Source: Bacillota bacterium
GTDB lineage: Bacteria > Bacillota > Clostridia > Clostridiales > Clostridiaceae
Assembly: GCA_030706065.1 (NCBI GenBank)
Contig: JAUZPH010000001.1
Location: 1 to 29,619 of the forward strand
Length of the DNA: 29,619 nt
Reading direction: 5' to 3'
Positions 18,806 to 19,262 of this stretch are shown here, one piece after another. The notes under the pieces were generated by a model. It did not search any database, had not been told where the DNA came from, and saw only the letters and a program-made list of their open reading frames with translations. The first letter of the stretch is position 1; every line of letters begins with the position of its first letter. The translations under genes were made by a program, and so were the position numbers.

Positions 18806-18904
18806 TAGATGTGAGACTTTATACTTGAATTTATCACTTTGGAAAAATCGGTGAAGATTCGATATTTTCCAAAGTGAATATATTATGATTAAAGTCTCAC
18901 ATCT
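18806..18904 (+). repeat. ~100-bp nested-palindrome repeat, subfamily 1, copy A
   Basis: Perfect 15-bp outer IR (18807-21/18890-904), perfect 13-bp inner IR (18834-46/18865-77), core at 18842-18869. Confidence 0.92.
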
Positions 18905-18908
18905 TTTT

Positions 18909-19007
18909 TGCTGCGGAAATTTATTTCTAAATTTATCGTCTTCGAAAAATCGGTGAAGATTCGATATTTTCTCAGTCGAATACTAAAGGTCTAAATTTCC
19001 GCATCTA
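18909..19007 (+). repeat. ~100-bp nested-palindrome repeat, subfamily 1, copy B, tandem with A
   Basis: Perfect 12-bp IR TGCGGAAATTTA/TAAATTTCCGCA. The 28-nt core (18944-18971) is identical to that of copy A, at a period of 102 bp. Confidence 0.92.
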
Positions 19008-19010
19008 TAT

Positions 19011-19039
19011 TTGCAGAGGTTTTTTCTTTATGCTAGAAT
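19011..19039 (+). promoter_or_regulatory. Probable SigA promoter of the radical-SAM operon
   Basis: TTGCAG, 17-nt spacer, TAGAAT with an extended TG at 19031-32. Confidence 0.6.
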
Positions 19040-19103
19040 ATAAATTATGTTTATACAGGTCCACAGTGATACCCTATTCAACTTTAGCATGGGGATATCT
19101 ATA

Positions 19104-19262
19104 AAGATATCCAACTTCAACTACAATTTTAACTTGCTGGGGTGTAAAATTTCTTCTTAAAATTAAGAAAAGCAAATATGATGAAATTTTACACCCTAGA
19201 AAACCGGTTAAAGATTCCGGATTTTCAAACAAGTTAAAATTAAGTTTTCGTAAGGATATCTA
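19104..19262 (+). repeat. Repeat subfamily 2, copy D, with an extra internal hairpin
   Basis: Core variant at 19199-19226. IRs AGATATCC/GGATATCT, AATTTTAACTTG/CAAGTTAAAATT and GGGTGTAAAATTTC/GAAATTTTACACCC. TA on both flanks. Confidence 0.85.

Follow-up and report, generated by a model that had tools for sequence, protein, structure and literature searches.

The conserved hairpin described here is the apex of a family of short, dispersed repeats that is well supported and falls within a known kind of bacterial mobile DNA. On the evidence of sequence comparison, these repeats are probably a new family of TA-type bacterial MITEs, of the Correia, ERIC, and RUP kind, whose apical hairpin would be needed in cis for mobilisation. 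The apex is conserved as a structure, which makes the family unusually informative.

The window, i.e., the whole stretch of 29,619 nt that was analysed, contains five matches to the core pattern S-AAAA-N4-KTRAAGATT-N4'-A-TTTT-S, against none in 100 shuffles (Table 1). Their coordinates, strands, and sequences agree with the original prediction, down to the single mispair in the copy at 1087-1114. The predicted fold of the core of element A has 9 pairs, a bulged A, and a 9-nt loop, and that of element C is lost (-0.9 kcal/mol). As single-stranded DNA, the isolated 28-mer cores have marginal stability (-0.9 to -5.2 kcal/mol, z +0.7 to -2.8) and the whole elements of the window fold strongly (z -3.2 to -9.4; -27.2 kcal/mol and z -9.4 for element A). 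The outer stems of elements A and B had been said to differ by four fully compensatory pairs. These four differences are indeed compensated on both arms, but one further A/C position in B is uncompensated.

Table 1. Positions of the hairpin family in the window, and of the candidate mobile-element genes found on other contigs of the same genome (G000).
Feature	Location	Strand	Description
Core of element A	18842..18869	+	GAAAA-ATCG-GTGAAGATT-CGAT-A-TTTTC; pattern match
Core of element B	18944..18971	+	Same sequence as the core of A; pattern match
Core of element D	19199..19226	+	Upper stem CCGG/CCGG; pattern match and predicted fold
Core of element E	25961..25988	-	Closing pair C-G, upper stem AGCG/CGCT; pattern match and predicted fold
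Core of element C	1087..1114	-	Upper stem ATCG/CGCT, one mispair; pattern match
Element A	18806..18904	+	Long hairpin, subfamily F1b type; inverted repeat with arms GATGTGAGACTTTA / TAAAGTCTCACATC
Element B	18910..19007	+	Subfamily F1; inverted repeat with arms TGCGGAAATTTA / TAAATTTCCGCA; fold z -4.0
Element D	19102..19261	+	Composite, subfamily F6 arms ..GATATCCAACTTCAACTA.. / ..AAGTTTTCGTAAGGATATCTA; inverted repeats
Element E	25924..26028	-	Subfamily F5; abuts the stop codon of an obg-like gene
Element C	1051..1150	-	Subfamily F1; predicted fold
Terminator 5' arm	18790..18801	+	Downstream of a spoIVFB-like gene; inverted repeat
Terminator 3' arm, then T-run	19008..19019	+	Same terminator of the spoIVFB-like gene; inverted repeat
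Y1-HUH (TIRYT-type) genes	G000 contigs C71:6442-7399, C300, C234, C165, C317, C14:2464-3391		
IS1595-like ISs	G000 contigs C209:3755-4837, C46:17277-18332, C521, C585, C117:281-1315, C58		

The sister species (MAG Bacillota bacterium OH_CBrB_310, coding DNA 74-80% identical) has none of the five elements of the window at the orthologous positions. Elements A and B lie in tandem within the loop of the intrinsic terminator of the spoIVFB-like gene, which their insertion splits; in the sister species the hairpin CCTCTG..CAGAGG and its T-run are intact, with a short loop from which both elements are missing. Element A has a TA at its left flank (18804-18805), and element B lacks the usual TATAG at its left end and is followed by a TA after its right end (19008-19009). 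Element D carries an extra hairpin module, H2 (19134-19202), immediately 5' of its core, and the sister species lacks the entire block of ~210 nt. Just upstream of D, a fragment at 19058-19103 ends in GGGGATATCTATA, in direct repeat with 19254-19269; as it repeats the F6 right end, it resembles a minimal version of the family, or an end standing alone. The site of element E is empty in the sister species (..CTATAG/TTCGGAGG..), where the obg-like gene stops at the same position. Element C is missing from the orthologous intergenic region. In the window, the element lies between a 6S RNA (63-253, 50.9 bits) and a c-di-AMP riboswitch (1266-1407, 87.2 bits), both above the Rfam gathering score, and is upstream of the riboswitch. 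Scans of the locus for sigma-70 promoters and terminators gave signals at or below chance.

The genome is a 4.24-Mb draft of 715 contigs (40% G+C, 88% complete), in which the core has 285 exact matches (none in the reversed-genome control), 136 with one mismatch (control 6), and 148 with two (control 69). We estimate that the draft holds ~415-490 copies, about one per 9 kb, and the repeat accounts for much of the fragmentation of the assembly. Throughout the genome, the core is the apex of a TA-flanked near-palindrome of ~100 nt that forms a long hairpin, and the arms of a copy complement each other (score 13.5) better than they do those of other copies (9.1) or shuffled arms (7.1). Simple forms measure ~92-105 bp and composites 130-200 bp. 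Composites occur in F1, F1b, F3, and F6 and have a further hairpin module directly 5' of the core, sometimes with a second core of its own.

Clustering gave at least three superfamilies with mutually unalignable arms: F1/F1b (about 270 and 106 copies by arm counts), F3/F4 with the Clostridium type, and F2/F5/F6. Common to all are the core and the TATA(G)...(C)TATA-type ends, together with an internal loop containing TAAG ~15 nt 3' of the core. Among 225 F1 copies, the ends TATAG(A/C)...TCT(G/T)TA are kept in ~90%, with TA at both ends, and conservation stops beyond the outer TA. An Rfam search at gathering and permissive thresholds returned no family, with sub-threshold miRNA-like hairpin noise as its only output, and RNAalifold gave no useful consensus for a mixed F1/F1b alignment. 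To our knowledge, and by informal comparison, the core does not fit the 0A box, cre, CodY, DnaA box, or dif motifs.

The variation among the copies is what reveals the constraint on the apex. Although the N4 was left free in the search pattern, 368 of 421 copies pair along the whole upper stem, which comes in 11 different fully Watson-Crick versions, among them ATCG/CGAT (237 copies), ATCC/GGAT (70), ACTG/CAGT (18), CCGG/CCGG (10), ACCG/CGGT (7), AGCG/CGCT (5), and CCCG/CGGG (3). All versions with more than five copies are paired; mispairing is seen in 35 versions, each present 1-5 times. At the closing position, 232 copies have G-C, 56 C-G, 40 T-A, and 15 A-T. When copies were found by the loop and complementary N4 only (315 matches, against 1 in the control), the AAAA (92-98%), the bulged A (96.5%), and the TTTT (94-99%) turned out to be conserved as well. 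When 158 copies were found by their arms alone, core positions were 92-97% conserved, against 82-84% in mid-arm.

We measured covariation on 82 distinct copies from the genome, its sister species, five Clostridium genomes, a metagenome-assembled genome, and a prophage contig. The score was 0.400, against 0.133 in shuffled alignments (0/500) and at most 0.121 with slid partners; 78.6% of the cells were paired (61.6% when shuffled), and 281 were doubly changed (109 when shuffled). The upper stem and closing pair give a strong signal; the four A:T pairs of the A4:T4 stem never change type. Eighteen columns (17 of the 28 core positions and one flanking column) are at least 90% conserved, and the arms have diverged beyond alignment. 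So sequence is what is constrained in the A4:T4 stem, loop, and bulge, which stay fixed, and pairing in the arms, upper stem, and closing pair, which covary.

The larger alignment therefore bears out what had been proposed from five cores: the 4-bp stem changes while keeping its pairing, the closing pair flips, and the loop and bulged A are retained, both of them, like the A4:T4 stem, across genera and across families with unalignable arms. The expectation that the loop is more conserved than the stems stands across families but not within the young F1 family, and conservation among recent copies is partly due to descent. The idea that a protein reads the folded single strand also stands in part. 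The pattern is the one expected if a hairpin or cruciform is read by a protein, but no single folded strand emerges from the G.T wobble pairs, on which the subfamilies contradict each other: those of four (F1, F1b, F2, and F3) speak for the loop strand and those of three (F4, F5, and F6) for its complement.

Such a pattern might also arise without any recognition function, with a core shared by descent or recombination and compensation produced by template switching in quasi-palindromes. We find this explanation unlikely. A few copies have indeed become more perfectly palindromic: an F1 copy on contig C30 (~8560-8650) has the perfectly symmetric centre CCTGAGGAAATATTG-CTAAAAATT-CAATATTTCCTCAGG, without the usual loop and bulge, as an example of palindrome symmetrisation, and in a second copy the left mid-arm has been brought into agreement with the right one. 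There are also hybrids that combine F1 and F1b arms, and most copies are recent and related. However, template switching should erase asymmetries, whereas the bulged A, the 9-nt non-palindromic loop, the mismatch between left C and right A at the ends, and the TAAG internal loop of the 3' arm persist across superfamilies and genera. Template switching, though it does occur in a few copies, cannot explain these asymmetries. The conservation of 18 core-region columns between arms that cannot be aligned, and the restriction of high copy number to paired versions, also argue against it.

A better account of the compensated changes is provided by selection among master copies of a MITE, where only the versions keeping the apical fold would multiply, and single copies would then decay, neutrally, after their insertion. 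This reading follows from two observations: only paired stem versions reached high copy number, and orthologous copies in two Clostridium species show uncompensated changes of the stem and closing pair (L028:4454-4505 and L169; L021 and L025). The original prediction had opposed its pattern to the passive decay of a MITE. This opposition does not survive, as the element is itself MITE-like and the pattern is consistent with master copies being selected for mobility.

The copies are overwhelmingly intergenic (416 of 421, or 99%, with crude gene calls), a class of sequence that makes up ~16% of the genome. Their distribution among tandem, divergent, and convergent contexts tracks intergenic length, with 23% of the copies between divergent genes. 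In every genome inspected, they occur singly or in tandem among housekeeping genes. Where the flanking genes are in tandem, 94 copies have the loop strand in the sense orientation and 131 have it antisense (p ~0.014, normal approximation), gene direction serving as a proxy for replication strand bias in this draft of 715 contigs. The hairpin had been noted to occur in both orientations relative to transcription, which is the case, and its bias relative to gene direction is weak. Both orientations, together with the copies between divergent genes, imply that a role in host mRNA is not required. Some copies split terminators or sit near ribosome-binding sites, which affects how annotation and gene regulation are to be read in carrier genomes.

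These locations raise the question of a host function at the RNA level, where the hairpin would be the site of an RNA-binding protein or RNase, or a stabiliser or terminator in untranslated regions. The intergenic regions that hold copies are often co-transcribed, the G.T pairs of the dominant subfamilies speak for the loop strand, and the long stem-loops of other bacterial MITEs are substrates of RNase III or RNase E (PMC2229807). Yet a host RNA function is quite unlikely. The orientation is near random and the contexts follow intergenic length; there is no Rfam family, and promoter and terminator signals stayed at or below chance. In three subfamilies the better fold is that of the opposite strand, stems and closing pairs change without compensation between the orthologous copies mentioned above, and the family is absent from nearly all relatives.

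Comparisons between genomes argue for mobility. Beyond the five elements of the window, two Clostridium genomes (~88% identical) gave seven further filled and empty sites, one of them within a terminator loop. At L030:1620-1770 of Clostridium rhizosphaerae, compared with L245 of oral taxon 876, a copy interrupts the loop of an intrinsic terminator (CTCACCTG...CAGGTGAG and a T-run) that is intact in the relative, in parallel with the insertion of A and B in the window. Flanks that form at least 11 pairs surround ~2.7% of the F1 copies of the draft genome, against 0.3% in controls. Nested insertions were also seen, including an F4 element inside an H2 loop. This F4 element is one of two sites with a clean TA duplication, the other being L029:3592-3691. 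Other filled and empty sites fit TATA, or have an empty allele without TA, and are blurred by the TA-repeat ends and by 10-25% divergence. We found no copy-specific target duplications of variable sequence of 2-6 bp at any boundary offset. Together with the TA ends, these sites suggest that the elements would insert at TA, most likely with duplication of the TA, and with a modest preference for hairpin loops such as those of terminators.

The usual TA-duplicating family is IS630, and we did not detect it (PF13358, NF033545) in the six element-bearing genomes. IS110, TnpB, and the small IS200-type TnpA are absent from this draft genome. Its only multi-copy transposases, IS1595-like, were rejected as mobilisers, with ends unrelated to the hairpin family. 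They correspond to ~ten copies of two ISs (DDE_Tnp_IS1595 with an N-terminal zinc ribbon) with ends GACTAAGGCTATGTTG..., several of them beside a AGCAAATATAT motif. The other multi-copy proteins of the genome are ordinary paralogues. A 385-aa ORF on contig C47 (7241-8398), with Pfam hits to Big_4 and ATLF (anthrax lethal factor N/C-terminal domain family), is present in two copies. A TnpB beside one C. rhizosphaerae copy was considered as a partner and discarded, since a 96%-identical relative has no element there and the copy is thus an insertion.

A search for an autonomous parent revealed no pair of arms 400-3000 bp apart around an ORF and no solo half-elements; the apparent 'solo right' halves turned out to be composites. 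The genes neighbouring copies in Clostridium genomes and metagenome contigs are housekeeping genes, with no recurrent partner among them. As the draft is incomplete and repeats assemble badly, the absence of a mobiliser is weak evidence in this genome and stronger evidence in the isolate genomes.

The original prediction likened the core to the hairpins with an extrahelical base that are read by HUH enzymes and by integron integrases. If the elements were single-stranded DNA elements of the REP/REPIN or IS200/IS605 type, a Y1-HUH enzyme (RAYT/TnpA) or an integron-type tyrosine recombinase would read the hairpin with its extrahelical A. This could account for covariation with a conserved bulge and loop, for the weak orientation bias, for the few insertions within hairpin loops, and for empty sites with TATA-like sequence resembling the element ends and no copy-specific direct repeat. 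Moreover, Y1-HUH genes are present in all six element-bearing genomes. In this genome there are six, diverged and of ~310 aa, with a C-terminal HTH and of the TIRYT type, and all are flanked by GGGGACGGTTCA-type inverted repeats (GGGACGGTT(C/A)A). The 10-nt core of this repeat, GGGACGGTTC, has 90 exact copies genome-wide, 18 of which form close inverted pairs. Four Clostridium carriers have a single-copy homologue each, also of the TIRYT type, with GGGACGGTTAA on its flanks. A Y1-HUH gene flanked by the hairpin had been suggested as a thing to look for, and none of these ten genes, from five genomes, is flanked by the core.

Terminal repeats of the GGGG[AT][CG]A[CG] type are the published arrangement of TIRYT (subclass 2.1) genes (PMC6006769). 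The Y1 genes examined here carry these flanks, which ties the HUH system to another repeat. The elements are conserved at the apex, unlike REPs, whose conserved foot carries a GTAG-type tag, and the genome has neither the small IS200-type TnpA nor TnpB. HUH elements make no TA duplication, and two clean ones were found. The orientation bias relative to gene direction (131:94) is weak, and the analogy with integrons fails on the absence of a cassette array, the copies being scattered among housekeeping genes. We therefore regard recognition by a Y1-HUH enzyme or an integron-type recombinase as very unlikely.

A rather unlikely possibility is that the family is moved by a type of enzyme so far unconnected with MITEs, distinct from both the IS630-type DDE transposases and the Y1-HUH enzymes. 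It would read the folded apex and the TATA-type ends and insert the element at TA, sometimes in hairpin loops; it would be encoded by the host or still unassembled. If true, it would represent a structure-guided mobilisation mechanism common to several Clostridia.

The taxonomic distribution of the family is narrow and uneven. There are 277 strict copies in this genome and 31 in the sister species. Sixteen other genera of the family and 12 genomes of the order gave no copy. Across 400 genomes sampled from the class, the matches are at chance level (4 singletons vs 4 control hits). The exact core was found in Clostridium rhizosphaerae (33 copies), Clostridiales oral taxon 876 (9), two 'Candidatus Clostridium' species (5 and 3), and Clostridium sp. 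N3C (1). Metagenomes gave 24 loci in 241 million records. One of these contigs (Ga0172378_10007808, L221:4553-4792) has three core units head-to-tail with a period of 106 nt; its arms (TTGCATAATTATAAATT...) were not seen elsewhere, suggesting a possible further subfamily, and in the third unit both the stem (AATG/CATT) and the loop (GTGAACATT) are changed. Of 120 pattern matches in viral contigs, one is a real copy, in a probable prophage, and a search of plasmids gave no match. This patchy distribution, with variable copy numbers, is the pattern of mobile DNA that spreads horizontally.

Taken as a MITE, the core would be the apical hairpin of a non-autonomous, A+T-rich, TA-flanked near-palindrome of ~100 bp that has expanded to ~400-500 intergenic copies. 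The apex, presumably required in cis for mobilisation, may be read in its folded form, either as an extruded cruciform or as a single strand, by a protein acting in trans. This putative reader could be a transposase, or a host factor that brings together the two ends of a short element. Hundreds of copies, superfamilies sharing only their ends and apical hairpin, and covariation that separates the bases bound by pairing from those bound by identity make this family unusually well suited to asking how orphan bacterial MITEs, such as Correia and ERIC, are mobilised. Since it is present in a cultured Clostridium isolate (C. rhizosphaerae YIM B02515 is one cultured carrier), pull-down and mobilisation tests are feasible.

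Bacterial MITEs are described as A+T-rich elements of less than 200 bp, with TA at their termini and long stem-loops, and several TA-ended ones also lack a known transposase (PMC2229807). The present family is likewise short and dispersed, with terminal inverted repeats, a long stem-loop fold, and filled and empty sites; a parent IS or transposase with matching ends was not found in the draft, which is 88% complete. The Correia/NEMIS elements of Neisseria resemble it in being A+T-rich and intergenic, of ~100-155 bp, in hundreds of copies, with terminal inverted repeats, TA ends with TA duplication, and size variants caused by internal modules (PMC2229807). They have a central binding site for the IHF protein, proposed to aid transposition, and no known cognate transposase (PMC2229807). 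In contrast, the centre of our family is not a duplex IHF site but a structure-conserved hairpin with a covarying stem, a fixed loop, and a bulged A. Its arms differ completely between superfamilies, and its host is a Gram-positive anaerobe.

The ERIC/IRU of enterobacteria and the RUP of pneumococcus are also imperfect palindromes of ~100-130 bp with TA termini and polymorphism of filled and empty sites, but they have no sequence similarity to the family. ERIC has been described with a conserved central inverted repeat. RUP targets TA and inserts into other repeats (PMC2229807). It has a candidate mobiliser with matching ends, IS630-Spn1, whereas no IS630 was detected in the six carriers of our family.

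The REP/REPIN-RAYT and TIRYT systems share with the family the dispersal of intergenic hairpin repeats, and this genome holds such a Y1-HUH system, which uses the GGGGACGGTTCA repeat and not the core. REPs have a conserved tag and palindrome at the foot of the hairpin and a variable spacer at its tip. The core family shows the reverse, a conserved tip with variable arms, and has TA flanks, no GTAG/CGTC-type tag, and no Y1 gene flanked by the core. It also differs from integron attC sites, having no integrase-linked cassette array, R/L boxes, or GTTRRRY ends, and from IS200/IS605 elements and the PATEs derived from them, with TA duplication at two sites in a family whose genome lacks IS200-type TnpA and TnpB. 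What the core has in common with attC sites and the end hairpins of IS200/IS605 is a fold that is kept, with its extrahelical base, through changes of stem sequence, which is the same logic of structure-specific recognition.
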